The position numbers and the translations under genes were made by a program. The notes below the pieces were generated by a model. It searched no databases and was not told where the DNA came from. It was given only the letters and a program-made list of their open reading frames with translations. A stretch of 64,000 bases of DNA from a virus (lineage: Duplodnaviria > Heunggongvirae > Uroviricota > Caudoviricetes), in the IMG/VR virus record IMGVR_UViG_2585427708_000005, one strand, 5' to 3'. Shown here in pieces: positions 5,896 through 62,356 of the stretch (positions are counted from its first letter, which is position 1; each line of letters begins with the position of its first letter).

Positions 5896-5982
5896 TGGTG
5901 GGGAGTGATGGAGTCGAACCACCCGAGTCGCAATGACAGTAGATTTACAGTCTACCCCGCTACCCCTACGGACTAACTCCCC
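5896..5982 (-). tRNA. type II tRNA-like gene, tRNA-Tyr (GUA)-like, D-arm atypical
   Basis: 87 nt; perfect acceptor GGGGAGT/ACTCCCC, anticodon stem-loop GTAGA-CTGTAAA-TCTAC, long variable arm resembling E. coli tRNA-Tyr, T-arm GGTGG-TTCGACT-CCATC, encoded CCA. Confidence 0.5.
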
Positions 5983-9700: not shown

Positions 9701-10022
9701 CGAGATGACTGACTACGTAATCACCAGGGCAAACATTTTCTATTGGTTTATAGCCATTTTTACAAAGAACCATATGCCCCGCGGTAAAACATGGTGTTCC
9801 CCCGACGAGCACGTCAGGGGATTCGATTTCCCCAGCCAAGACTTTTTTGGCAAGTTTTTTCATGTCGCCAAGGTTGGCAACATGGGGCCAGCGGAGCGCA
9901 AGAACGGCCGATGGAAAAGGCTCGATTTCAGCAAACCACGCCGGACGCATACCCAACGGTTCCCAGGCAATACTCGCGGCTTCAATTCCACTGCAAACAG
10001 ATCCATAGCACAGCTCTTTCAC
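6735..10022 (-). CDS. dmt: bifunctional DNA methyltransferase (N-terminal C5-cytosine MTase, C-terminal Dam-like N6-adenine MTase) interrupted by an intein
   Basis: GTG start overlapping rdgC stop; C5 motifs ENV (VIVWENVPG), [10 protein letters not shown], split PC-Q motif; Dam motifs [10 protein letters not shown] and DPPY; 1095 aa = ~754 aa extein + 341 aa insert. Confidence 0.85.
8769..9791 (-). other. intein (341 aa) with LAGLIDADG homing-endonuclease domain inside dmt
   Basis: insert begins CFTAGHMVL (Cys1), contains TxxH block (TTNDHPF), two LAGLIDADG motifs ([13 protein letters not shown]; [13 protein letters not shown]), ends ...[20 protein letters not shown] followed by Cys+1; excision restores [12 protein letters not shown]. 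Confidence 0.75.
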
Positions 10023-23753: not shown

Positions 23754-23778
23754 AAAGCTCCTGCGGGAGCTTTTTTTG
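23754..23778 (+). terminator. rho-independent terminator
   Basis: agctcc-tgc-gggagct hairpin followed by TTTTTTTG. Confidence 0.8.
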
Positions 23779-23818
23779 TGCTTAAATTATGCTGGTATAG
23801 CGAAATTTTGAGCATATT

Positions 23819-24115
23819 ATGGAAATTGATTTTTCATACTCTCCTGAAACGATAGAACGAAGATTCGAAATAATTGGATGCAAAACTATTTCAGAGGAGC
23901 ATTATTGGATTCTCTATGATGCCAATACATGGTTATGTGCCTTAGCAGAATGTCGGTCATCGTTATGTGCAGGGGAGGGAGGACTTCGACATAAGGTGCT
24001 GGCTACACTTGAAGTGAACACGTTACGATATTGGTGTGTCGAAATACTTAGGAATAACAAAGAATTACATTTATTATTGCTGAATAAATGTGCACCTCTG
24101 CGCAGAAAAGCATAA
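23819..24115 (+). CDS. hypothetical protein (98 aa, Cys-rich)
   Basis: ORF with several Cys; no motif. Confidence 0.4.
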   Translation: MEIDFSYSPETIERRFEIIGCKTISEEHYWILYDANTWLCALAECRSSLCAGEGGLRHKVLATLEVNTLRYWCVEILRNNKELHLLLLNKCAPLRRKA

Positions 24116-24242
24116 GAAAACCCAACAGCCATACTGGAATTATCAGAAGAATATGTGCGGAAAGTTATAGCTAGCTATTGAAAAGCTAAAGTAGATCGGT
24201 TAGATTTGCCTTACTCATCTACCATGTGTAGAAAGAGCGATC

Positions 24243-24283
24243 GAACCCGATACATAGCAATATGTGTCGGGTTCAGCTTTTTT
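24243..24283. terminator. terminator-like imperfect hairpin with T-run between convergent genes
   Basis: gaacccgatacata ... tatgtgtcgggttc followed by TTTTTT. Confidence 0.5.
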
Positions 24284-24746
24284 ATGTCCCAAGCGCTCTT
24301 TTTCTGCTTTGTTTGAGTGTTCTGATTTTACTGTTATAGGTTACAACATAGGCTGTTTTAAGAAGCCAATAGTCTCTACGTGCGGATAGCACAACAACGT
24401 AGTTTTCACACTCGTTCCAGATTACCCATTCTTCAGTTGGTCCTCGTCTTTCAGACCAACATGATATATCGGAATGGTTATAATTCCTTATCATATGCGC
24501 GATCCAGCGGATCCGCTTACACCGTTCAAGATCAGGTATTCGTTCTTCTTCTATTTTTCCCTCTGATACTAAATGCCAAAATCCGAACTCTTTCCCATCA
24601 TATTCCGGTGAATAACGTAACCGAACAGGGAGACCCTTAAACGTTATATTAGAGATTAAAATGTCTTCTCTGACAACATAATATACATCGTCTATATACT
24701 CTTGCCAACTTCCATTGAAGTACAATAAATCTGGCATTTGAAGCAT
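24282..24746 (-). CDS. hypothetical protein (154 aa), second gene of AT-rich two-gene operon
   Basis: ATG overlaps upstream stop (TGATG) with GGGAGG RBS inside upstream gene; no recognised motif. Confidence 0.5.
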   Translation of the reverse strand: MLQMPDLLYFNGSWQEYIDDVYYVVREDILISNITFKGLPVRLRYSPEYDGKEFGFWHLVSEGKIEEERIPDLERCKRIRWIAHMIRNYNHSDISCWSERRGPTEEWVIWNECENYVVVLSARRDYWLLKTAYVVTYNSKIRTLKQSRKRALGT

Positions 24747-25450
24747 CAGCGAGCCTCCCACACGAAAATATTAAATTTACTTTCTGTTGGAAGAGTGCTT
24801 TTTAGTAAATCCCTGTTTGTATGTGATTTTATCCTGTTTATGACTTGGATTTTTCCCGCGTTGCTATTCATTCCTCGATGAACGTAGCCTAACGCACCAA
24901 TGAAAAGATCCGTTAGCTGCAATTGTTGCACTTCATGAGATCGTATATGTTGAATTCTGTTTATCGACTCATGATTGTAATCATAGCGATCATTGTGAAG
25001 AACTCCTCTTAATTTCTCAATTTTTTCAATGCCTAAAGTATCTTTTATATCTAGGTAGATATTGTATGTGTTGTTACTTTCTATTATGTTTTTTAAGACA
25101 TAAAAAAACATCTTATAATAGAAAGTATTATGATCTTGATGGAATCGAGCATGGTCCAGTTGCTCTTTATCAGGAACAACAACACCTCTAAAGCGCAATG
25201 CTGGGTTGCTGAAGAAGTAATCTACGACATCTAAGTAAAATTCAACCTTGGACGCAGATACTTTAGTCCACTTGATTTCGAAATCAGGTTTTAGATTGTG
25301 TTTTAATTTTAATTCCTTGATGTCTCTAGCAATTTTTTTTGTGATAGTGCCAGGGCACCAAAGCGCACCCAATACCATGACTTTATTATGATCATTTAGT
25401 AGGTGACAGGATTCATCGCAGAATACATTAAATGTTCTTCGGTTCAACAT
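24746..25450 (-). CDS. hypothetical protein, tentatively DUF3800-like (234 aa)
   Basis: N-terminus FNVFCDESCHL resembles the (Y/F)xDESG start of DUF3800 proteins; strongly AT-rich gene. Confidence 0.45.
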   Translation of the reverse strand: MLNRRTFNVFCDESCHLLNDHNKVMVLGALWCPGTITKKIARDIKELKLKHNLKPDFEIKWTKVSASKVEFYLDVVDYFFSNPALRFRGVVVPDKEQLDHARFHQDHNTFYYKMFFYVLKNIIESNNTYNIYLDIKDTLGIEKIEKLRGVLHNDRYDYNHESINRIQHIRSHEVQQLQLTDLFIGALGYVHRGMNSNAGKIQVINRIKSHTNRDLLKSTLPTESKFNIFVWEAR

Positions 25451-25618
25451 GTTAACTCCACTTATTGTTAGGTAGAATTGTCCGTTAGTTGTTTATTAAT
25501 TGCAATAATGGGACGTCCAGTTTTGGCAACAGTGCCCTCTTACCAGGACGCCTATGAGTTTGCCTCATGGCAAACTAGAGGCGTTGAAAGTATGCATGGT
25601 TATAATTAGAACAATTCA

Positions 25619-37675: not shown

Positions 37676-38511
37676 TGCAGCGTTCCTGGTTTAATAACCG
37701 GCTTACATCAGCTAAGCAAAAGTCATTGCTCTATAAATCATTGGCTGATTTGGTTCAGTCAATGATGGACACCTTTGTTGACCCATGGTTGGAGCGAATT
37801 ACCAACCGGAAGTCTATTTTCTCCATGAGCAAGGAGGATCTGGAGACCAGGACAAATGAACTTGGCCAGTTCTTTACTATCAGAACCTCGGACTCATCTT
37901 CCGTTCCGATGTTGTTACAACAGCGGCTTGATGAGATCCACTTTAAGGGAACTGAACGTCCTATAAACCAGACAATTTACCGCGAATTTAACGGTATTTC
38001 TGTTTTATGGGATCCGATATATGCACCGGTGGACCTTGAGCGTCATCCCTATGGCACAGTTCTAATACCAGAAAGCACATTGGAGACTACCGGCGGCACA
38101 TTCGGCGAGATGTTTCTGACTTCCAGAGGGATGATCAGTATTCCCATAAACGACCTGGCCCGGACAATGGGTATTACTGGCACGATAGATCAGTCCGCAA
38201 TTACAGAAGAAATTCTCAGAAAGTTTAATCAGTTCGTAAAGCCTCTACTGCCACTGCATATAGTGTTTGATGGGCTTACGCTCTATTTGTCGGTTGTTGT
38301 AAATGAACAGGCCGACATGATCACTTTGAACGAGATTTCTGATACCGAAAAAGCATTCTGCTGGTTTGAAACTTCGGATACAACTTCGCTTACTGGAGTT
38401 ACGTCGATTAGCGCCCCGATCACCGCAACGCCTGGTGGCACTATTGTGAAAGCGACACCTACGTTTGATCGCACCCGCGCAGATGATTTGTTGCTGGATA
38501 GCGACGCCTGA
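37672..38511 (+). CDS. baseplate/tail protein candidate (279 aa)
   Basis: coupled to upstream gene; followed by strong hairpin 38515-38539. Confidence 0.5.
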   Translation: MMQRSWFNNRLTSAKQKSLLYKSLADLVQSMMDTFVDPWLERITNRKSIFSMSKEDLETRTNELGQFFTIRTSDSSSVPMLLQQRLDEIHFKGTERPINQTIYREFNGISVLWDPIYAPVDLERHPYGTVLIPESTLETTGGTFGEMFLTSRGMISIPINDLARTMGITGTIDQSAITEEILRKFNQFVKPLLPLHIVFDGLTLYLSVVVNEQADMITLNEISDTEKAFCWFETSDTTSLTGVTSISAPITATPGGTIVKATPTFDRTRADDLLLDSDA

Positions 38512-38589
38512 CAATCACCCCGTCCGCAGGGCGGGGTGACAAGTTACTTCTCTTACAATGAGGCTTCACAACAGTGATTAGGGAAAATC

Positions 38590-39024
38590 ATGTCTGACGT
38601 CTCAACAAACCTCTATAAGAGTCAGTTGTTGGACTATTACTATCAGCGGCGCGCTGAATCGTCCATTAACAAAGGCTCTCGATTTTTAATCAGCAAGGCC
38701 GTTTTCGGTACCAGTTCTCTGGTTACTAAGAAAGGAGATGGCACTTATGAGATTGGAGAACTGCCAAAGGCTTTCGATCTGGCAGAACTGACCAGCCAAT
38801 TTTGTACCATCAACCTCGTGCCAACCTACTCAGGTGGGATAATTACTGTCCGAATGGACCTTGATCAAAGCCAGTTGCAGGAAGGGAAAAACTACCCATT
38901 CAACACTCTGGTTGTTCTGGATAACGAGAACAAGCCAATCGCCATTATTTGTGTCCAGGAAGACTCGCTGTATGTGGGCAAAACATATACCGCAGTTATG
39001 GCCATAAACACGACTACAGCATAA
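38590..39024 (+). CDS. tail fibre-associated protein (R-like by position), 144 aa
   Basis: immediately upstream of tail fibre gene. Confidence 0.45.
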
Positions 39025-39035
39025 GGATATGCTTG

Positions 39036-41885
39036 ATGAATGACGTTACAGTTGTTACATCGGTTACTTACCCATCACCCGAGTCGTTGGCTCTGGTTGC
39101 TGATGTGCAATACCACGAACCATATCTGTCAGCCGCGCTAAACCGAAAATTCAGGGGGATTGTTGACCCGGGATTTTATGCCGGTTTCTTACCTAAGCCT
39201 GGCGGTGGGATGAACCTGTTAATCACCTCAGTGGATGGAGATAAAACCGCAGGCGCGGCGTCGGTGGATATTGGTGAATTCTACCAGGTAACTATTCAGC
39301 AACGTACGGATATTCCTCTTGCACTTAGTGCAGGCAAGAAATATGCAATTGTGCTGAAGGGAAGATACCTCCTTGGAGAGGATACCTATCAGGTTAATAC
39401 CGCGTCACATATTCATGCGGCTGAATTTGTTACCAGAACCTATACCGATTCATATCAGTTAGGAGATGGGGAGCTGCTTGTTTGTACGGTGAATATCCCT
39501 GCTGGAGTATCAGCCATTACCCAGGAGATGATTGATACATCCGAGCGTATTAACCGCACGATCGGCATTGATATCTCAGACTCTGTAACCAGTAGCAGAA
39601 GTGATGTTGCTGCAAGTTCGCTGGCAGTTAAAAAAGCCTACGATCTGGCGAACAGTAAGTATACGGCGCAGGATGCAAGCACAACGCAAAAGGGATTAGT
39701 TCAGCTCAGTAGCGAAACTAACAGCGACAGCGAAACAATGGCGGCTACCCCTAAAGCCGTTAAGTCTGTAAAAGATCTTGCTGATACCAAAGCGCCAATA
39801 GAAAGCCCGAGTCTGACAGGAACGCCAACCGCGCCGACGGCAGCGCAAGGTACAAATAGCACGCAGATCGCAAATACAGCCTTTGTTAAGGCAGCTATAA
39901 CGGCACTTATCAACGGTGCACCTGGCACACTGGATACGCTTAAAGAAATAGCTGCTGCGATCAATAACGACCCGAATTTCAGCACAACTATCAACAATGC
40001 TCTGGCTCTTAAAGCTCCTTTAGCAAGTCCTGCATTAACGGGAATACCTACTGCGCCTACCGCTGCACAGGGTACGAATAACACGCAGATTGCTACGACC
40101 GCTTATGTAAGAGCTGCCATATCCGCATTGGTTGGTTCATCACCAGAAGCTCTTGATACCCTGAATGAGCTTGCCGCAGCACTTGGTAATGACCCGAACT
40201 TTGCGACAACAATGACAAATGCGCTGGCAGGCAAACAGCCTCTGGATGCAACTTTAACCGCGCTTGCTGGTCTTGCTACAGGCGCAAATAAATTGCCGTA
40301 CTTTACCGGTACAGACACTATTTCTCAGACTGACTTAACGTCAGTCGGTCGCGATATTCTGGCCAAAACAAGCGTCCTTGCTGTTATCCAATACCTTGAT
40401 TTAAGAGAACTTGGCACAAGCGGTGAAAAGATCCCCCTGTTGAGCACGGCTAACAAATGGGGTGCACGCCAGACTTTCAACGGTGGGATCACCGGGGCGC
40501 TGACAGGGAACGCCGACACCGCGACGAAATTAAAAACAGCCATAAACATTAATGGCGTCAGATTCGATGGTTCGGCTGACATTAATATCAATACTCTGGT
40601 ATCTCGCGGTCGCGTAACGGCCCTAGAGGCGAATGCACAGGGAACATCCGGGATTCAGCTGTATGAGGCATACAACAATGGCTACCCTTCCCCCTATGGC
40701 AATGTGCTTCACCTTAAAGGTGCCACCGCTGCTGGCGAAGGTGAGTTATTCATTGGCTGGAGTGGCACGAGCGGTGACCATGCGCCCGTACATATCCGTT
40801 CGCGGCGTGATACTGATTCTGCCAACTGGTCTGAATGGGCGCAGGTCTATACGTCAAAAGATTCAATTCCCGGCGTCAATGCCAAAGGGGATCAGGACAC
40901 CTCTGGTAATGCGGCTACAGCGACCAAGTTGCAGACAGCATGTACTATCAATGGCGTCTCGTTTGATGGTTCTACTGATATCACTTTAACCGCTGCGCAT
41001 GTTGCTGCTTTTGCCAGAAGAGCAACGGATACGTATGCCGATGCGGATGGGGGCGTTCCCTGGAATGCCGAATCAGGCGCTTACAATGTCATTCGCTCTG
41101 CCGACAGCTATATTCTGGTTAACTTCTATACCGGAGTCGGAAGTTGCCCGACCTTGCAGATGAAGGCGCATTACAGAAATGGTGGTCTGTTCTACCGTTC
41201 TTCAAGAGACGGTTATGGTTTTGAGGAAGACTGGGCAGAAGTTTATACCTCGAAAAATCTTCCACCAGAAAGCTACCCAGTCGGCGCACCAATCCCGTGG
41301 CCATCAGATACCGTTCCGTCTGGTTATGCCCTGATGCAGGGGCAGACTTTTGACAAATCTGCATACCCGAAACTTGCAGCGGCTTATCCGTCAGGCGTTA
41401 TTCCTGATATGCGTGGCTGGACGATTAAGGGCAAGCCCGGCAGTGGTCGTGCCGTATTGTCTCAGGAACAGGACGGCATTAAATCGCACACCCACAGCGC
41501 CAGCGCATCCAGTACGGATTTGGGGACGAAAACCACATCGTCGTTTGATTACGGTACTAAAACGACCAGTTCATTTGATTACGGCACAAAAACTACGAAT
41601 AGCGCTGGAAATCATTCACACAATATACCTGTTGGTCACACTGGCGCGGGGAATGGTGTATCAGCCGGTTTTAACGCTGCGTTAGGTACTGGTACCACGT
41701 CGAGCGCAGGCGAGCATGCTCACAATGTATATATCGGTGCCCATAACCACACTATCGGCATTGGTGCTCATGCCCATTCTGTCATTATTGGTCCCCACGG
41801 ACACACCATCACCGTTAACGCTACGGGTAACGAAGAAAACACCGTAAAAAACATCGCATTTAACTATATTGTGAGGCTTGCATAA
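39036..41885 (+). CDS. tail fibre protein (S-like), 949 aa
   Basis: ATG 39036 with RBS; tandem ~60-aa repeats ([28 protein letters not shown] / [28 protein letters not shown]); C-terminal [10 protein letters not shown] repeats and His-x-His motifs as in T-even fibre tips. Confidence 0.85.
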
Positions 41886-42463
41886 TGACATTCAGAATGA
41901 GTGAACAATCACGGACCATAAAAATTTATAATCTACTGGCTGGAACCAATGAGTTTATTGGTGAAGGTGATGCATACATTCCACCTCATACAGGTCTGCC
42001 TGCAAACAGTACCGATATTGCCCCGCCAGATATTCCGGCTGGCTTCGTGGCCGTTTTCAACAGTGATGAGGCATCGTGGAATCTCGTTGAAGACCATCGG
42101 GGAAAAACCGTCTATGACGTGGCTTCCGGCGACGCGTTATTTATTTCTGAACTTGGCCCATTACCGGAAAATGTCACCTGGTTATCCCCGGAAGGGGAGT
42201 TTCAGAAGTGGAACGGCACAGCCTGGGTGAAAGATGCAGAAGCAGAAAAACTGTTCCGGATCCGGAAGGCGGAAGAAACAAAAAACAGCCTGATGCAGAT
42301 GGCCAGTGAGCATATTGCGCCACTTCAGGATGCCGTAGATTTGGATATTGCGACGGAGGAAGAGGCATCGTTACTGACTGCATGGAAGACATATCGGGTA
42401 TTGTTGAATCGTGTTGATACAACAGTAGCATCGGATGTTGAGTGGCCAGTCGCCCCGCAATAA
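41885..42463 (+). CDS. tail fibre assembly protein (Tfa/U-like)
   Basis: 192 aa; coupled to S (ATGA overlap); N-terminal pattern typical of Tfa chaperones. Confidence 0.8.
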
Positions 42464-42506
42464 AAGGATAAAGCCATCGATAGAAATATTGATGGCTTCA
42501 TGTACT

Positions 42507-43079
42507 CTATTTATACAATACAACACCGCTCTTTTTTGTTATATATGTGCAGTTCGATGGTATATCTTTATTTATAAAAGACATTGCACCTATTTTTACA
42601 TTATCCCCAATTTTACGTGATAATCCAATGATGCAACAATTAGCTCCGATATCAACGTTATTACCAATTTTTACTCTTGAACCAGGCATGTCACCATCTA
42701 CCTGTCCAATGGTAGTATTCTGTCGCAAAACCAGATTTTCACCAGCATCAACAGCAAAATGAACAACAATTCCAGTATGATGGGGAATTGTTAAACCTTT
42801 TCCAATATTTGCGCCCAATCCAATTTCGCAACCAAATCTGTTAATTATATTATTGTTTAACTTTCTGGCTGCTTTCTTATGTAATTTATTGCCATTAATA
42901 TACATTTCATTAGCCAGTCTCCACCAGAAAAGGAAATTCCGATTGCGCTGCTTCTTCTCTCTTAATAGTCGCCAAACATCCATTTTTTCACGCCTGATGA
43001 TTTCAGCCATCCAGTAGCTCAATAGAGCTTTTGAATTCCCGAAGATGACAAAGTGAATAGCTATTAAGTAACATAACAT
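42507..43079 (-). CDS. hexapeptide-repeat acetyltransferase (left-handed beta-helix family)
   Basis: repeated [LIV]G-x-x-x-x-I hexapeptides (IGLGANIGKGLTI, VKIGNNVDIGANCCIIG, IGDNVKIGAMSFI); AT-rich; convergent with tail fibre operon. Confidence 0.7.
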   Translation of the reverse strand: MLCYLIAIHFVIFGNSKALLSYWMAEIIRREKMDVWRLLREKKQRNRNFLFWWRLANEMYINGNKLHKKAARKLNNNIINRFGCEIGLGANIGKGLTIPHHTGIVVHFAVDAGENLVLRQNTTIGQVDGDMPGSRVKIGNNVDIGANCCIIGLSRKIGDNVKIGAMSFINKDIPSNCTYITKKSGVVLYK

Positions 43080-43834
43080 ATTGCAACTGCCTATATTTTT
43101 TGGTTTCTATGTTTATATATTGACATTATAATTAAAACAATAATCATCAGTGTGTTACTGCGTTCCTGCTAAACTAAATCAACGCACAATGTAAACACAA
43201 ATGTTAATTTTAAACTGAGCGCTAAAGGGATGTCAATATTGTATTGATAATGAGTTGCAAGATTGCCAACACTTTCTATATTTTTGGATGTAATAATTTA
43301 TATTTTATCTATTTAGTGTTTCTTTAGACTTATTAAGGATGTCATTATTAATTTATGGCTTGCCATTTCTATACATATCTGTTAAAAATTTTGACTTGTT
43401 TGTTGAAAATAGATTTAATTGATTGGTTTATTTTTTACATGACGCTCTTTAATATAGCTTCAGGTATATATAAGCACAATGCATTATTTCCAGAGGAAAT
43501 TAACAAAATTGTTAGCTCTTATTTGTTGAGCTTATAGATATTAATTAAGGCCCGATTCCGGGCCTTTCCTCATTCCGGCTTTTCGGGAAACGTTACTGGA
43601 AGGATGGAGGTATCCGTGGATTCGACTTTCTGCGCATAGAGAATCCACTCGGTTAATTTTTGTTTACCCTGAACGGAAATAATGCCTAGCCGTAACTGTG
43701 AGTCCCAGAGCTGAGTTTTATCCCTGACGAGCTGTAGCAGGCTTTGCTTTTCTTTTTCCGCTTGTTGTCTTTGCATGACCGGTTGAGAAGTTACTTTGCA
43801 TACCATTACCTCCTGACAACGTAGGAGGGAACTT

Positions 43835-44164
43835 GTGCTTGACACACAGGAATTAGCTCCAGTTGCTATTGCGCTCCTGCTTTCAGTAATTGGTGGGATA
43901 GGCACGTTCCTGATGGATGTCCGAGACGGTCGCCAGTCTGGCAATTTGTTGGGATTGGTTACGGAGATCTTTGTTGCAGTGACAGCTGGCGCGGTGGCGT
44001 ACCTATTGGGGCAACACGAGGGCTGGGAGTTATCAATTACGTACTTAATGGTAACGATAGCCAGCAATAACGGTCATGAGGTGATTTCAGGGATGAAACG
44101 AGTGAATATCGATAGCATTCTGAATGTTCTTACAAGTTTGGTGAAAAAGGGAGGTGGGAAATGA
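43835..44164 (+). CDS. lydA: holin (LydA-like)
   Basis: GTG start after GGAGGG; 109 aa with TM segments (VAIALLLSVIGGIGTFLM; IFVAVTAGAVAYLLG); upstream of 147-aa LydB-like gene. Confidence 0.6.
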   Translation: MLDTQELAPVAIALLLSVIGGIGTFLMDVRDGRQSGNLLGLVTEIFVAVTAGAVAYLLGQHEGWELSITYLMVTIASNNGHEVISGMKRVNIDSILNVLTSLVKKGGGK

Positions 44165-44604
44165 TTGGCTGGGGTGTATGCGCTCTTGCGTTAGCCTTAG
44201 CCGATCGCTATTTGCTAAAACGCAAGGACATCACGCATTTAGAACTTGGTGATGTGGAAATTAAACCGGGTTTCATCCGGGTGCCGTTCAAATACCGGTC
44301 TAAATTCCCGTTTTTGCGCGGCGCAACGGTCAGATATTGGATCCGCGATGTTCAGAAGCCAACGACAGTGATTGAAGGCGAACAACGTTGTCTGACGTCG
44401 GCTGAACAGGGCGAAAACAGTGAATGGTTGTACATACCCACTGAATATATGGGTAAAGGAGAACGGCTGTGGCATTTCAACGTCATGGTTACGCATGGCG
44501 ACTCGTTCATTAACCCGTTGTATCGGATTTTCCCTGTTACTCAGCAAATCCGCAGAAGTTACGTAATAAATCTCGCACAGGATGTGTCAGATGACGAAAA
44601 ATAA
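44161..44604 (+). CDS. lydB: antiholin candidate (LydB-like)
   Basis: 147 aa, coupled to lydA by overlap; size and position match P1 LydB. Confidence 0.5.
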   Translation: MIGWGVCALALALADRYLLKRKDITHLELGDVEIKPGFIRVPFKYRSKFPFLRGATVRYWIRDVQKPTTVIEGEQRCLTSAEQGENSEWLYIPTEYMGKGERLWHFNVMVTHGDSFINPLYRIFPVTQQIRRSYVINLAQDVSDDEK

Positions 44605-57443: not shown

Positions 57444-59429
57444 ATGATCTGGTTTAAAATGGATATGAAAAAAGAAACGATTTTTTCCGAAGTAGAAACG
57501 GCTAACAGCAAGCAACTGGCTGTGTTGAAAGCTAATTTCCCACAGTGTTTTGATAAAAACGGAGCCTTCATTCAAGAAAAATTGCTTGAGATTATTAGGG
57601 CATCGGAAGTTGAACTCTCTAAAGAATCATACAGCTTAAACTGGCTGGGTAAATCTTATGCCCGTTTGTTGGCCAATCTACCACCGAAAACGTTGTTGGC
57701 TGAAGATAAAACCCATAACCAACAAGAAGAAAACAAGAACAGTCAAAACCTGTTAATCAAAGGGGATAACCTCGAAGTATTGAAGCATATGGTTAATGCT
57801 TACGCTGAAAAGGTGAAGATGATTTACATTGATCCACCATACAATACAGGTAAGGATGGGTTCGTTTATAATGATGATCGCAAATTTACACCTGAGCAGC
57901 TTTCGGAACTGGCAGGTATCGATCTTGATGAAGCTACACGTATTCTCGATTTTACTGTAAAAGGCTCAAGTAGCCATAGTGCATGGCTGACATTCATGTA
58001 TCCTCGTTTATATGTAGCTCGTGAGCTCTTAAAAGATGATGGAATAATATGTATTTCTATCGATGAGAATGAACACTCAAACTTAAAAATACTGTGTAAT
58101 GAAGTATTTGGTGAGTTTAACTTTGCTGGCGAAATAGTATGGAAAAATAGCAGCAAAAACGACCAGGCCTATATTTCAATTCAGCATGAATACTTGTTAT
58201 TTTATGTTAAAAGTAAAGAGCATAATTCCGGTCAATGGAGTGAGAAAAAAGATGGATTAGATGAAATCTATAAGGCATTTGATGGCTTTAGAAAAAAGCA
58301 TGGTGACAATTGGGCTGCTATACATAAAGACGCTTTAGAATGGTTCAATCAATTCCCTGCTTCTAACCCAATAACAAATAGCAAACATTATAATTGGATG
58401 GATGAAAGAGGCATTTACTTCCCTGATAATATTTCTAAACCAGCTAATGGTTATTACTATGATATTGAACACCCTATAACCAAAAAACCTTGCAAAAAGC
58501 CTGCTGGGGGCTGGCGTTTTATTGAGGAAACAATGAAACATAAAATCAGTGAGAATAGAATACATTTTGGCAAAGATCACACTGTAGTTCCTAACAATAA
58601 AACCTATCTTAAGGATACTGAGTATCAGAGCCTGACCAGTATAAAATTTAAAGATGGACGCGTAGCATCAAATATGTTAAAAGAAATATTTGGTCAGAAA
58701 GACATATTTACAAACCCAAAGGATGTAGGGTTATTGTCTGAAATATTTAAGGCTTTAAATATTGAACATCGAGATATTGTGCTCGATTTCTTTGCTGGTT
58801 CGGCATCTACTGCCCATGCAATCTATAATATGAATTGCAATGAAGAGAAGGAACTAAAATTTATTTGCATCCAACTTCCAGAAGAGACTAAAGAAAAGTC
58901 AGAAGCCTATAAAGCTGGGTATAAAAATATCTTTGAAATTACAAAAGCAAGATTGCTCAAATCTTCTGAGAAAATTAAAAATGAAAACCCTGATTACAGG
59001 GGAGACCTAGGTTTTAAAATATTCGAAACAGTCAATGATTTTCGTACACAAGATGTGTCAGAACTTACGCTGTCTAATCATACATTCTTTGATGATGTGG
59101 TCTTGACGCCTGAACAATATGACACTCTATTAACTACATGGTGCCTGTATGATGGTAGTTTGCTAACAACACCTATCGAAGATGTTGATCTTAGTGGCTA
59201 CAAAGCACATTTGTGCGATGGTCGTCTGTATTTGATTGCACCTAATTTTACTAGCGAAGCATTGAAAGCGTTACTTCAAAAGCTGGATTCAGACAAAGAC
59301 TTTGCTCCAAACAAAGTCGTTTTTTATGGCAGTAACTTTGAAAGTGCAAGGCAAATGGAACTCAATGAAGCACTAAAAAGTTATGCTAATAAAAAATCTA
59401 TTGAGTTAGATTTGGTGGTGAGGAACTAA
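57444..59429 (+). CDS. mod: type III R-M methyltransferase subunit Mod (N6-adenine)
   Basis: DPPY motif (YIDPPYNTG), AdoMet motif; start may be at internal Met (MKKETIF, 57465); AT-rich. Confidence 0.9.
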   Translation: MIWFKMDMKKETIFSEVETANSKQLAVLKANFPQCFDKNGAFIQEKLLEIIRASEVELSKESYSLNWLGKSYARLLANLPPKTLLAEDKTHNQQEENKNSQNLLIKGDNLEVLKHMVNAYAEKVKMIYIDPPYNTGKDGFVYNDDRKFTPEQLSELAGIDLDEATRILDFTVKGSSSHSAWLTFMYPRLYVARELLKDDGIICISIDENEHSNLKILCNEVFGEFNFAGEIVWKNSSKNDQAYISIQHEYLLFYVKSKEHNSGQWSEKKDGLDEIYKAFDGFRKKHGDNWAAIHKDALEWFNQFPASNPITNSKHYNWMDERGIYFPDNISKPANGYYYDIEHPITKKPCKKPAGGWRFIEETMKHKISENRIHFGKDHTVVPNNKTYLKDTEYQSLTSIKFKDGRVASNMLKEIFGQKDIFTNPKDVGLLSEIFKALNIEHRDIVLDFFAGSASTAHAIYNMNCNEEKELKFICIQLPEETKEKSEAYKAGYKNIFEITKARLLKSSEKIKNENPDYRGDLGFKIFETVNDFRTQDVSELTLSNHTFFDDVVLTPEQYDTLLTTWCLYDGSLLTTPIEDVDLSGYKAHLCDGRLYLIAPNFTSEALKALLQKLDSDKDFAPNKVVFYGSNFESARQMELNEALKSYANKKSIELDLVVRN

Positions 59430-59431
59430 TC

Positions 59432-62356
59432 ATGTCAAAAGGGCTCACTCTCGAAAAGAACTTGCCGCATCAGAAAGCCGGAGTCGATGCGGTGATGAAT
59501 GTTTTTGTTTCCGCAATACCTCTCCTGACGGATAATGTTGCTATTCGCCTATTAGCTAATCCAGAACTGGAACTGTCTGAACAACAATACTATAACAATA
59601 TAAAAAAAGTTCAGGAGTTTAATGGTATTGAGCACTTAAAAGATAATTACGATGCTAAAAGCAACATCATTGATGTTTCTATGGAGACAGGTACAGGTAA
59701 AACGTATACCTATACCAAAACTATTTTTGACCTGAATAAATCATTTGGCATTAACAAGTTTATCATCATTGTTCCCACTCTATCGATCAAGGCTGGAACA
59801 GTTAATTTTTTAAAAAGTGATGCTTTAAAAGAGCATTTTCGAGATGATTACGAGCGTGAGCTGAGGACTTACGTTGTTGAAAGTCAGAAAAACGCAGGAA
59901 AAAATACAAAATCGTATATGCCACAGGCTATACATGATTTTGTTGAAGCAAGTAATTTCAATAAGAAATATATACACGTTCTTGTGATCAATTCAGGAAT
60001 GATCAATTCTAAGTCTTTAACTGACAGTTATGATGTTGGCTTGCTTGATAATCAGTTTGACACCCCATTCTCAGCTCTCAGAGCGGTAAGGCCATTCATT
60101 ATTATTGATGAACCACATAAATTCCCCACTGGCAAAAAGACATGGGAAAATATAGAGAAATTAAATGCTCAATATATTATCCGCTATGGCGCAACCTTTA
60201 GTGAAGGCTATAAGAATTTAGTTTATCGACTAACAGCCGTGGACGCATTTAACGAAGATCTCGTTAAAGGTATTGATGCATATATTGAGGATATAGTCGG
60301 CGATGGTAACGCAAACCTCAAATTCGTCAAATCTGACGGAAAAGAAGCTACATTTGAACTGAATGAAAATAGCAATAAAAAAACGTTCAAGTTAGCTAAA
60401 GGTGAATCACTATCTAAGACACATGGTGCTATCCATGATTTAACTCTTGAGGCTTTAAACAAAAATACAGCACTGTTGAGTAATGGTATTGAGCTAAAGA
60501 TTGGTAGCTCGATAAACCCCTATTCTTACGATCAGACTCTTGCTGATAACATGATGCGTAAAGCGGTCAAAGAACACTTTAAGTTAGAAAAGGAGTATCT
60601 GACACAAAGGCCACGCATAAAGCCTCTTACTCTTTTCTTTATTGACGATATTGAAGGCTATCGTGACGGTAATGATATTGCCGGAAGCCTGAAAACCAAA
60701 TTCGAAGAATACGTTCTGGCAGAAGCTAATGAACTGTTAAAAACAGAGCAAGATGCGTTTTATAAAAACTATCTTGAAAAAACAGTCAAAGATATATCTT
60801 CCGTTCATGGTGGTTATTTCTCAAAAGATAACAGTGATAAGGATGATAAAATCGAGCAGGAAATCAACGAAATCCTTCATGACAAAGAGCTTTTGCTGTC
60901 TTTAGATAATCCCCGTCGGTTTATTTTCTCAAAATGGACGTTGCGTGAGGGGTGGGATAATCCTAATGTCTTTCAGATCTGTAAGCTCCGTTCGAGCGGT
61001 AGTACCACATCTAAGCTTCAAGAGGTAGGGCGCGGTTTGCGTCTTCCTGTGAATGAATACATGTGTCGAGTGAAAGACCGCAATTTCACTCTCAACTATT
61101 ATGTTGATTTTACAGAAAAAGATTTTGTTGACTCACTTGTTAAAGAGGTCAACGAGAGTTCTTTCAAAGAAAGGGTTCCAAGTAAGTTTACTCAAGAGCT
61201 TAAGGAACAAATCAGGGCTCAGTATCCTGAGCTTTCATCCAGAGCACTAATGAATGAACTTTTCAATGATGAAATCATTGATGACAATGATAATTTCAAA
61301 GATTCAGATGCATATAGCCGCTTAAAATCAAAATATCCAGCAGCATTCCCTATAGGAGTGAAACCAGGTAAAATCAAAAAGGCTACTGATGGAAAAAGAC
61401 GCACTAAAATGCGTGTTGGTAAGTTCAGTGAGCTGAAAGAACTATGGGATTTGATCAATCAAAAAGCGGTGATTGAGTACAAAATAAACAGTGAAAGTGA
61501 ATTTTTATCCATTTTCAAGTCATTCATGCTCGAAGAAACAGAACGATTTACCAAATCAGGCGTTCATACTCGCATTGATAAAATTTACATCCGCAATGAT
61601 ATGGCAATGTCGAAAAGCATTGTTAGTGATGACGATGACTTTGCTAAGCTAAACACAATGAGCTATCGAGAGTTTCTCGATAACTTATCACAAACTATTT
61701 TTGTTAAACACGATACTTTACATAAAGTTTTTTGTGATATAAAAGACACTATTAATATCACTGAATACCTGAATATTCAAACAATCAGAAAAATTAAATC
61801 TGGTTTTAGTAAGTATTTGTTGAACAATTCGTTTAACAAATTCAGCCTCGGATATAATTTGATTTCGGGTTCAATTCATCCCACAAAGTTCACAAATGCT
61901 GATGGTAAGCCTCTAGACGAGGTATTATCAAGTGATCTTGGTGTATTGCAGGATAATTCAAAAGCACCATTAGATACTTATCTTTTTGAAGAAGTTTTTT
62001 ATGATTCAGAGCTTGAAAGGCGTAATATAACAGATAGAGAGATCCAGTCTGTTGTTGTTTCTGTTGTTGTTTTTTCAAAGATACCGAAGAATTCTATTAA
62101 GATCCCGGTAGCTGGTGGATACACTTACTCACCCGATTTTGCTTATGTTGTAAAAACAGCAGAAGGTGATTATCTTAACTTTATCATTGAAACAAAAAAC
62201 GTAGATAGTAAGGATAGTTTACGGCTTGAAGAAAAAAAGAAAATTGAACATGCCCAGGCGCTTTTCAATCAAATAAGTCAGTCTGTTAAAGTTGAATTCA
62301 AAACGCAGTTTGCTAATGATGATATTTATCAGTTAATCAAGAGCGCATTACCATAA
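59432..62356 (+). CDS. res: type III R-M restriction subunit Res (helicase-nuclease)
   Basis: 974 aa; Walker A TGTGKT, DEPH box (IIIDEPHKF), helicase motifs; follows mod with 2-nt gap. Confidence 0.9.
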   Translation: MSKGLTLEKNLPHQKAGVDAVMNVFVSAIPLLTDNVAIRLLANPELELSEQQYYNNIKKVQEFNGIEHLKDNYDAKSNIIDVSMETGTGKTYTYTKTIFDLNKSFGINKFIIIVPTLSIKAGTVNFLKSDALKEHFRDDYERELRTYVVESQKNAGKNTKSYMPQAIHDFVEASNFNKKYIHVLVINSGMINSKSLTDSYDVGLLDNQFDTPFSALRAVRPFIIIDEPHKFPTGKKTWENIEKLNAQYIIRYGATFSEGYKNLVYRLTAVDAFNEDLVKGIDAYIEDIVGDGNANLKFVKSDGKEATFELNENSNKKTFKLAKGESLSKTHGAIHDLTLEALNKNTALLSNGIELKIGSSINPYSYDQTLADNMMRKAVKEHFKLEKEYLTQRPRIKPLTLFFIDDIEGYRDGNDIAGSLKTKFEEYVLAEANELLKTEQDAFYKNYLEKTVKDISSVHGGYFSKDNSDKDDKIEQEINEILHDKELLLSLDNPRRFIFSKWTLREGWDNPNVFQICKLRSSGSTTSKLQEVGRGLRLPVNEYMCRVKDRNFTLNYYVDFTEKDFVDSLVKEVNESSFKERVPSKFTQELKEQIRAQYPELSSRALMNELFNDEIIDDNDNFKDSDAYSRLKSKYPAAFPIGVKPGKIKKATDGKRRTKMRVGKFSELKELWDLINQKAVIEYKINSESEFLSIFKSFMLEETERFTKSGVHTRIDKIYIRNDMAMSKSIVSDDDDFAKLNTMSYREFLDNLSQTIFVKHDTLHKVFCDIKDTINITEYLNIQTIRKIKSGFSKYLLNNSFNKFSLGYNLISGSIHPTKFTNADGKPLDEVLSSDLGVLQDNSKAPLDTYLFEEVFYDSELERRNITDREIQSVVVSVVVFSKIPKNSIKIPVAGGYTYSPDFAYVVKTAEGDYLNFIIETKNVDSKDSLRLEEKKKIEHAQALFNQISQSVKVEFKTQFANDDIYQLIKSALP

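Follow-up and report, generated by a model that had tools for sequence, protein, structure and literature searches.

A lambda-type fibre tip and a passenger acetyltransferase gene beside a decayed inversion switch in a P1-like phage-plasmid

We analysed the tail-fibre locus of a 64,000-nucleotide stretch of virus DNA (IMG/VR record IMGVR_UViG_2585427708_000005; the whole stretch is hereafter called the window), which is a P1-like phage-plasmid of a kind common in Shiga-toxin Escherichia coli. In P1, the invertible C segment and its surroundings are ordered cin, cixL, Sv′, U′, a 28-bp gap, U, Sv and cixR. A first-pass annotation of the window had proposed that an acetyltransferase gene on the opposite strand (42507–43079, minus strand) and an AT-rich spacer occupy the place of the C segment and of the invertase gene cin. 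The present analysis points to another history, which very probably comprised three steps: a cassette exchange, an insert within the C segment, and a later deletion of about 2.9 kb. In the first step, an ancestral P1-like phage-plasmid would have swapped its S-fibre tip and U for a cassette made up of an Stf tip, tfa, a hairpin and the convergent acetyltransferase gene. In the second, this cassette, with a 463-bp spacer, would have come to lie inside the invertible C segment at the convergence point of U and U′, where cin+ relatives would still invert it. In the third, an illegitimate deletion of about 2.9 kb would have removed the 5′ part of U′, Sv′, one repeat, cixL, cin and lydC, so that the fibre would be locked as S::Stf plus Tfa. 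Together with the enzyme role considered below, we give this explanation as a whole a probability of roughly 0.7.

The deletion is visible as a sharp junction. The alignment of the window with phage JL22, a relative that has kept cin, runs to 43773, resumes at 43775 and is otherwise colinear. At the junction (43774–43775), JL22 position 5972 is joined to 8850, with 2877 bp absent, and P1 position 7115 is joined to 4244. The missing stretch holds the 5′ part of U′, Sv′, one repeat, cixL, cin and lydC; relative to P1, it extends from inside U′ to a few bases beyond the lydC stop codon. The junction lies 230 bp past the spacer and about 13 bp upstream of the P1 late promoter LPdar (43788–43806, plus strand), which is intact, as the sequence from 43775 to 43900 is 100% identical to the P1 stretch with the annotated LPdar. 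To the left of the junction, a 3′ remnant of U′ of approximately the last 67 codons was detected (43570–43773, minus strand), which matches only the C-terminal part of Caudo_TAP, as well as PHROG 3792 and 136, and shows 86% nucleotide identity to P1 U′ up to 43774. RefSeq names a 78-codon open reading frame (ORF) at 43570–43806 as ‘tail fiber assembly protein’, and the annotation of phage vB_EcoM-Ro157c2YLVW (below, Ro157c2YLVW) calls it U′. Neither end of the deletion lies at a cix site and no obvious microhomology was found, indicating illegitimate recombination rather than a product of Cin; a Cin-mediated deletion was rejected because neither end is at such a site. The putative holin gene lydC was lost along with cin.

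The remaining parts of the switch are equally incomplete. Using P1 and JL22 Cin as tblastn queries, the best match in the window had an E-value of 3.5, and no Cin homologue was detected by tblastn in the complete 97.9-kb sister plasmid pO111_2 (NC_013370; E. coli O111:H- 11128). A single cixR-type Cin crossover site was found at 40384–40409 (minus strand); it is the sole match in the window, with one mismatch to P1 cixR (0 matches expected by chance), and the mismatch is a C>T change beside the core. No cixL-type site was detected in the window with up to three mismatches, nor with up to six in a regular-expression scan. The same C>T-mutated site is the only cix site in Ro157c2YLVW and pO111_2, while JL22 has two perfect sites. 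The C>T change lies within the S coding sequence and may represent neutral decay after loss of the partner site. Similarly, of the 0.6-kb inverted repeats on either side of the P1 C segment, a single copy remains (40386–40974), matching both P1 and both JL22 copies, and no second copy was found in the window. With no Cin and a single cix site, the fibre locus cannot invert, and the orientation fixed in the window is the one in which the lambda-type tip is expressed. Based on the complete pO111_2, the whole element of this lineage is without the switch. In these respects the first-pass annotation read the locus correctly: it had reported that no recombinase gene is present, had suggested a search for cix-like inversion sites, of which no inverted pair exists, and had regarded the fibre locus as fixed.

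Compared with the P1 switch, the window has neither cin and its enhancer nor cixL, the second repeat, Sv′, the 5′ part of U′ or lydC, and the 28-bp gap between U and U′ is taken by a 1.1-kb insert of acetyltransferase gene and spacer, while the cixR-type site is at the same place in S in both. Loss of or damage to cin or the C segment in P1-like plasmids has been reported earlier (PMC6906374).

The locked arrangement is shared by a whole lineage. Ro157c2YLVW is colinear with the window at 98.8% identity across 10 kb, and pO111_2 is approximately 99% colinear with it. Both have the same deletion junction, U′ remnant and mutated lone cix site as the window, and differ from it only by allelic differences. 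Among 5426 complete E. coli genomes, the exact junction was found in 49, mostly strains of O111, O26, O103 and O157 from cattle and patients. Ro157c2YLVW, with the same junction, was deposited as an isolated phage of O157, and the locked arrangement is thus presumably compatible with infectious particles; we found no paper on this phage in the literature.

Four cin+ carriers of the cassette were read (JL22, NZ_CP041922, NZ_CP009051 and NZ_CP126933), and in all four the cassette coexists with full-length U′, Sv′ and cin, and lies within the invertible segment at the U/U′ convergence point. The gene order in JL22 is S::Stf, tfa, acetyltransferase gene, spacer, full U′, Sv′, cin and lydC. Like the window, JL22 has the same tfa, acetyltransferase (94.7% amino acid identity) and spacer (93.5% nucleotide identity) in the same place; unlike the window, it has kept the full U′, Sv′, two perfect cix sites, cin and lydC, and is thus still switchable. 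In JL22 and NZ_CP041922, the constant part of S (Sc) is joined to the Stf tip and the acetyltransferase gene is convergent to the fibre operon. In NZ_CP009051 and NZ_CP126933, Sc is joined to Sv′, cin lies beside the Stf tip, and the acetyltransferase gene is downstream of U′ and co-directional with it. NZ_CP041922 and NZ_CP126933 encode identical acetyltransferase and Cin proteins in these opposite orientations, indicating that the acetyltransferase gene is a passenger in a working switch and not a replacement of it.

The proposal that the whole C segment and cin were replaced in a single substitution by an acetyltransferase moron and AT-rich DNA would account for the cassette lying between U/tfa and lydA, a place taken in P1 by U′, Sv′ and cin, and also for the absence of Cin from the window. 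However, JL22 and several IncY plasmids have cassette and spacer together with an entire U′, Sv′ and cin, in either orientation, which speaks against it, as do the persistence of the U′ 3′ fragment and of the P1 U/U′ hairpin to the right of the spacer, and the location of the junction beyond the spacer rather than at its edge. We therefore consider a single substitution highly improbable; the replacement supposed in the first-pass annotation gives way to a separate deletion, of which the junction and the leftover U′ fragment are still visible. With respect to transcription, the acetyltransferase gene is co-directional with the late S′–U′ operon in the inverted orientation and convergent in the other, which is the one frozen in the window, and inversion could change the exposure of the gene to late transcription. 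The authors of the JL22 paper noted the ‘sacF’/tfa replacement in 2022, the reason for the acetyltransferase gene being unknown to them (PMC9603915).

The fibre gene itself is a chimera. The intact ORF of S (39036–41885, plus strand) consists of the P1 Sc part and the repeat up to 40974, followed by a lambda Stf-like tip from approximately 41283. Nucleotide identity to lambda stf/tfa is 84% at 41283–41622 and 90% at 41760–42447. The gene in the position of P1 U (41885–42463, plus strand; Pfam Caudo_TAP, E=8e-43) is a lambda-type tail-fibre assembly gene, tfa, whose product shows 88.5% amino acid identity to lambda Tfa, and 44% identity, across 66 aa only, to P1 U. Thus, the tail-fibre gene S and the assembly gene named in the first-pass annotation are both present, but its ‘U’ is a lambda-type Tfa and its S is an S::Stf chimera. 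By these comparisons, the P1 Sv tip and gene U have been swapped for a lambda Stf/Tfa-type module at 41283–42463. Lambda resembles the window in its tip and Tfa, but has no acetyltransferase gene after tfa.

Next to tfa, the acetyltransferase gene is arranged as a separate cargo unit. A hairpin with a 12-bp stem lies between the convergent tfa and acetyltransferase genes (42471–42498; approximately −16 kcal/mol on either strand, z approximately −4.4). A U-tract follows it on the minus strand, identifying it as the terminator of the acetyltransferase gene, and the homologous hairpin in a P2-like prophage was flagged as a terminator. On the other side of the gene, the spacer (43080–43542) is 463 bp of AT-rich non-coding DNA with 26.6% GC, and it occurs only in P1-like plasmids with the cassette. 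The acetyltransferase gene has 35.1% GC, and gene and spacer together (31% GC) form the lowest-GC stretch of 1079 bp in the window, which has 46.4% GC overall. A sigma-70 promoter-like site directed towards the gene (TTGACA-18-TAAAAT; 43207–43236, minus strand) lies 128 nt upstream of the ATG. It matches the consensus at 11 of 12 positions, is the best promoter match in the region, and both hexamers are conserved, as consensus matches, in Ro157c2YLVW and JL22. Copies of the gene in P2-like prophages have a different promoter-like site and a strong ribosome-binding site, AAGGAG; separate promoter-like sites in different contexts fit a moron. The first-pass annotation had described a convergent terminator hairpin after U, about 480 bp of very AT-rich DNA without coding capacity, and a moron, and all three descriptions hold: the spacer has no conserved ORF, and the gene lies on the opposite strand, has low GC (35% versus 46%) as well as a promoter-like site and a terminator hairpin that serve it alone, and is absent from P1 and lambda.

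Several candidate elements within this unit were rejected. The sole ORF longer than 27 aa in the spacer (43355–43537, 60 aa) was considered as a small membrane protein, and its frame is broken by a 1-bp indel in Ro157c2YLVW and JL22. Rfam gave only sub-threshold chance matches in the spacer (a cyanobacterial tmRNA model at 18 bits, versus a threshold of 70), so that no RNA element with a credible family was accepted. No tandem repeats were detected at 42400–43900, and phase-variable repeats at the acetyltransferase locus were rejected on this basis. The spacer was present in 65 of the 5426 complete E. coli genomes, always on plasmids and never on chromosomes, also in a sensitive blastn mode; an exact 24-mer scan of species-representative genomes gave no match that would indicate its origin. 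To the right of the spacer, P1 homology resumes at 43543, and a GC-rich hairpin (43547–43566; −14.6 to −16 kcal/mol) is inherited from the P1 U/U′ intergenic region.

We then considered how far the cassette extends beyond P1-like plasmids. P2-like and other myovirus prophages in E. coli chromosomes share with the window one contiguous block, at 87–93% nucleotide identity, that comprises the fibre tip, tfa, the hairpin and the acetyltransferase gene. This block starts at window position 41242, 41277 or 41930 and ends at 43071–43078, that is, at the start codon of the acetyltransferase gene. These shared blocks suggest that the cassette circulates among E. coli prophages. The acetyltransferase gene was found in 530 complete E. 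coli genomes, and in 528 of these tfa and the acetyltransferase gene stand side by side and convergent; conversely, this type of tfa was found in 4636 E. coli genomes and is paired with the acetyltransferase gene in approximately 11%. Among the 69 IMG/VR loci with enough flanking sequence, a convergent Tfa gene was located within 150 bp in 61 (52 of 52 close homologues and 9 of 17 diverged ones), and the diverged pairs reach down to approximately 42% identity for the enzyme and 39% for Tfa. At least three of the remaining eight loci are still adjacent to fibre genes (L089, L096 and L099).

The product of the gene is a left-handed beta-helix acetyltransferase of 190 aa, of the serine acetyltransferase (SAT)/WcaB-like type, belonging to PHROG 2154. 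Its ORF is intact, with 190 codons, and the hexapeptide acetyltransferase read from it in the first-pass annotation agrees with the family matches. The protein matched Pfam Hexapep (E=1.9e-5) and Hexapep_2 (E=0.0026), both under the Pfam gathering score, and the NCBIfam models EpsC, CysE and WcaB. Against PHROG 2154, a phage family of unassigned function, it gave E=1.9e-83 over residues 13–190. An AlphaFold2 model built with 44 homologues had a mean predicted confidence (pLDDT) of 92.9, with five N-terminal helices (residues 2–82) followed by the beta-helix, in which short regular strands occupy residues 110–180. Foldseek assigned a probability of 1.00 to beta-helix acetyltransferases; the best fold matches in the PDB were serine acetyltransferases (TM-score of approximately 0.72). 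The ratio of non-synonymous to synonymous substitution (dN/dS) was 0.07–0.21 over the full length, indicating purifying selection. The N-terminal 32 residues are kept at the protein level in prophage copies that differ at the DNA level. The 158-aa gene starting at Met33 in the JL22 annotation was rejected, because the first 32 codons are conserved, PHROG 2154 spans residues 13–190, and residues 2–28 are modelled as confident helices.

The name given to the protein by RefSeq and by the JL22 authors, serine acetyltransferase, would make it a genuine CysE and an auxiliary metabolic gene that boosts cysteine synthesis. The best PDB matches, by sequence as well as by fold, are indeed serine acetyltransferases. 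On the other hand, the scores were far below the cut-offs for CysE (65.6 bits versus 210.65 for TIGR01172, and 42.2 versus 397 for the full-length model NF008349), as they were for WcaB (56.5 versus 194.65) and EpsC (77.5 versus 150). The protein has 190 aa compared with 273 aa for CysE, only CysE residues 132–235 align with it (34% identity), and no Pfam match to the SATase_N domain was found. In published structures of E. coli SAT, residues D92, D157, R192 and H193 of CysE contact serine. The D143/H158 dyad of CysE corresponds to E85/H100 in the alignment, and H100 is conserved in at least 90% of the 44 homologues. At the position of D157, the protein has Pro99, a position that varies within the family; nothing corresponds to H193, and conservation is lacking at the position of R192. 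Furthermore, WcaB of E. coli is the closer relative, with 36% identity over 109 aa (E=1e-16), a shared ‘HH’ active-site motif and an hhalign probability of 99.5%, and it is the nearest characterised relative. From these alignments, the protein is probably not a genuine serine acetyltransferase, and the RefSeq label ‘serine O-acetyltransferase’ is probably a misnomer; we regard a metabolic role in cysteine synthesis as very improbable.

The first-pass annotation had left it to be decided whether the enzyme is of the WcaB/CysE or the CatB/Vat type, and had mentioned xenobiotic acetylation as possible. The enzyme is CysE/WcaB-like and not CatB/Vat-like. An antibiotic or xenobiotic acetyltransferase (XAT) conferring resistance would belong to the same beta-helix superfamily, but no CatB, Vat or XAT family was present among the 23 NCBIfam matches, the 34 PDB matches or the Foldseek list, and the nearest sugar acetyltransferases, LacA and Maa, were only weak matches. 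A resistance function of this kind is thus scarcely credible.

As to its role, we propose, at a little less than even odds, that lysogens produce the enzyme and that it adds O-acetyl groups to a sugar of a conserved glycan in the host envelope, thereby altering phage adsorption. In this proposal, it would be a soluble, trimeric, acetyl-CoA-dependent O-acetyltransferase with a Glu85–His100 dyad, expressed in the lysogen from its own sigma-70 promoter. The target would be a sugar of a conserved envelope glycan, for example lipopolysaccharide (LPS) or another lipid-linked polysaccharide, and lysogenic conversion would change the adsorption of phages with matching fibres. The neighbours of the gene in two lineages are compatible with such a role. 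In Xenorhabdus bovienii prophages (L014–L016), the homologue adjoins a family-25 glycosyltransferase gene beside tail-fibre genes, and in a PipA-carrying prophage, probably of Salmonella (L089), it adjoins the gene of an HtrL/YibB protein, again beside tail-fibre genes; the homologues in these two contexts show 52–63% identity. HtrL is linked to LPS through the E. coli waa region. These neighbourhoods possibly represent two-enzyme surface-modification modules. In addition, intact orphan copies of the acetyltransferase gene were found among housekeeping genes in Orbus, Obesumbacterium and a metagenome contig; their presence in chromosomes without phage genes indicates that the substrate is a host molecule and not a phage protein.

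The closest precedent is NeuO, the polysialic acid O-acetyltransferase of prophage CUS-3, a beta-helix enzyme that modifies a surface glycan and affects phage susceptibility (PMC3046976, PMC13001214). A prophage-borne beta-helix O-acetyltransferase acting on a surface glycan is likewise the working model here. NeuO differs from the window enzyme in that it was not among the PDB sequence or fold matches, and in that it is phase-variable, whereas the locus of the window has no tandem repeats. Phase variation of NeuO is attributed to a 5′ heptanucleotide repeat tract. WcaB, the colanic acid O-acetyltransferase, shares the beta-helix core and the ‘HH’ motif with the window enzyme, but the N-terminal 80 residues of the latter are unaligned and its gene lies outside a wca cluster. 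The acetyltransferase gene thus falls among the prophage morons that encode beta-helix acetyltransferases, with NeuO of CUS-3 as the characterised example, and is not a new kind of system.

Several observations weigh against this explanation. We found no experiment or paper in the literature that assigns a substrate; what was found on function was limited to the remark in the JL22 paper and the listing of a Citrobacter prophage homologue under ‘fitness’. Nine homologue contexts were looked up by protein, and an O-antigen, capsule or other polysaccharide cluster was present in none of them. Strains of many serogroups (O157, O111, O26, O103 and O78) have the gene, and therefore no particular O-antigen can be the target. 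The putative promoter of the gene is a consensus match only, and the Shine–Dalgarno sequence is weak in the P1-like context, since the sequence shared with the prophage copies extends no further than the start codon. The tight linkage to tfa could be pure hitch-hiking with an often-exchanged fibre-tip module. With respect to the history of the locus, the order of events, with the cassette before the deletion, was deduced by parsimony from the remnant of U′.

The absence of polysaccharide clusters from the nine contexts would also agree with a non-glycan substrate, such as a small molecule, a toxin, or a phage or host factor, the gene then being a single-gene defence, counter-defence or immunity cargo beside the fibre genes. 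At unrelated chromosomal sites and beside integrases, the gene forms a single-gene island, and in P2-like prophages it directly follows the tail-fibre assembly gene, the kind of slot in which the Z/fun cargo gene of P2 resides. However, PADLOC (2023 library) gave no match for the protein at E-values up to 0.01, and a known anti-phage defence system was rejected on this result. The nearest characterised relatives, WcaB and EpsC, acetylate polysaccharide units, and glycosyltransferase-type neighbours are present in two lineages. We consider a non-glycan substrate unlikely, though far from negligible.

The tight and ancient linkage to tfa genes might alternatively indicate a virion or fibre-maturation component that works with Tfa. 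Homologues with 31% identity in Streptococcus thermophilus phages (9871–9874, CHPC577 and the SW series; H235–H254) lie at approximately 17 kb of genomes of approximately 32 kb, a position assumed to be in the tail region; these homologues are annotated as serine acetyltransferase or transferase. In the window, however, the gene has the opposite strand, its own promoter-like site and terminator, and a foreign GC content. Moreover, most copies of this tfa type stand without the acetyltransferase gene (4636 genomes compared with 528 having the pair), lambda also lacks it, and intact orphans exist outside prophages. A virion function deserves very little weight, and the family and structure evidence together with dN/dS point to cargo rather than a virion gene.

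Returning to the proposed glycan O-acetyltransferase, a broader form of this model can be drawn for PHROG 2154 as a whole, although we regard it as rather doubtful. Cytoplasmic SAT/WcaB-like enzymes that have travelled with Tfa/tip cassettes since the pairs diverged to approximately 40% identity might mask the receptor matched by the fibre, by O-acetylating, for example, the LPS core. Lysogens and their debris would then stop adsorbing phages with the linked fibre, and in cin+ P1-like elements inversion could couple expression of the enzyme to the fibre being made.

Part of this locus was already known: annotated sequences identical to it are public, a 2022 paper noticed the cassette, and cin-less P1-like plasmids have been described. 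What is new here is the exact anatomy of the deletion, the location of the cassette within a segment that is still invertible in relatives, the evidence that ‘serine acetyltransferase’ is probably a misnomer, and the strong and old linkage of the family to tfa genes. The ‘serine O-acetyltransferase’ label and the Gene Ontology cysteine-biosynthesis term, which are probably wrong, have spread over hundreds of E. coli, phage and plasmid records. A whole P1-like lineage of Shiga-toxin E. coli (O111, O26, O103 and O157) has its host range locked with a lambda-type tip, which bears on transduction and plasmid spread. The old and tight pairing of enzyme and tfa is a lead to a possible receptor-modifying conversion function, with nothing mechanistically surprising in it.

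Two further homologues were observed in other settings. A 49%-identical homologue is carried by a 36-kb IMG/VR contig (L094), an N15-like linear phage-plasmid that encodes a TelK protelomerase; the homologue is flanked by a Bro-N gene and by small ORFs, with no fibre gene beside it. A 55%-identical homologue (L007–L010) is located at an E. coli prophage end beside copA; it directly follows a hok-type toxin gene, and a gene pair of tail fibre and DUF4376 assembly-like protein lies a few kb upstream of it.

On both sides of the locus, the backbone of the window is that of P1. Nucleotide identity to P1 is 96% at 38503–40974, a region with R, the constant part of S, cixR and one copy of the 0.6-kb repeat, and 99–100% from 43775 onwards (LPdar, lydA, lydB and beyond). 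The shared backbone around the C segment thus consists of R, Sc, cixR and the repeat, followed by LPdar, lydA, lydB, hdf and darA, at 96–100% nucleotide identity. Gene R of the tail-fibre operon (38590–39024, plus strand) is colinear with P1 R at 96% nucleotide identity and is annotated in Ro157c2YLVW. The genes lydA and lydB (43835–44164 and 44161–44604, plus strand), which start the dar operon, were identified by a match to Pfam Phage_holin_3_3 and by a LydB match with E=4.6e-103. Within this lineage, the acetyltransferase-and-spacer patch (42464–43542) of Ro157c2YLVW is nearer to that of the cin+ JL22 than to that of the window (approximately 95%, compared with 98–99% in the flanks), which suggests that the cassette was later exchanged between alleles by recombination. 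Elsewhere in the window, a low-GC patch at 23777–25604 has no long match in pO111_2; it contains a gene for a DUF3800 protein (24746–25450, minus strand) and a 159-aa ORF for which no Pfam match was found. Another region, at 57444–62356, encodes a low-GC type III restriction–modification pair (mod, 661 aa; res, 974 aa) and has no megablast match of at least 800 bp in pO111_2, indicating a variable cargo region.

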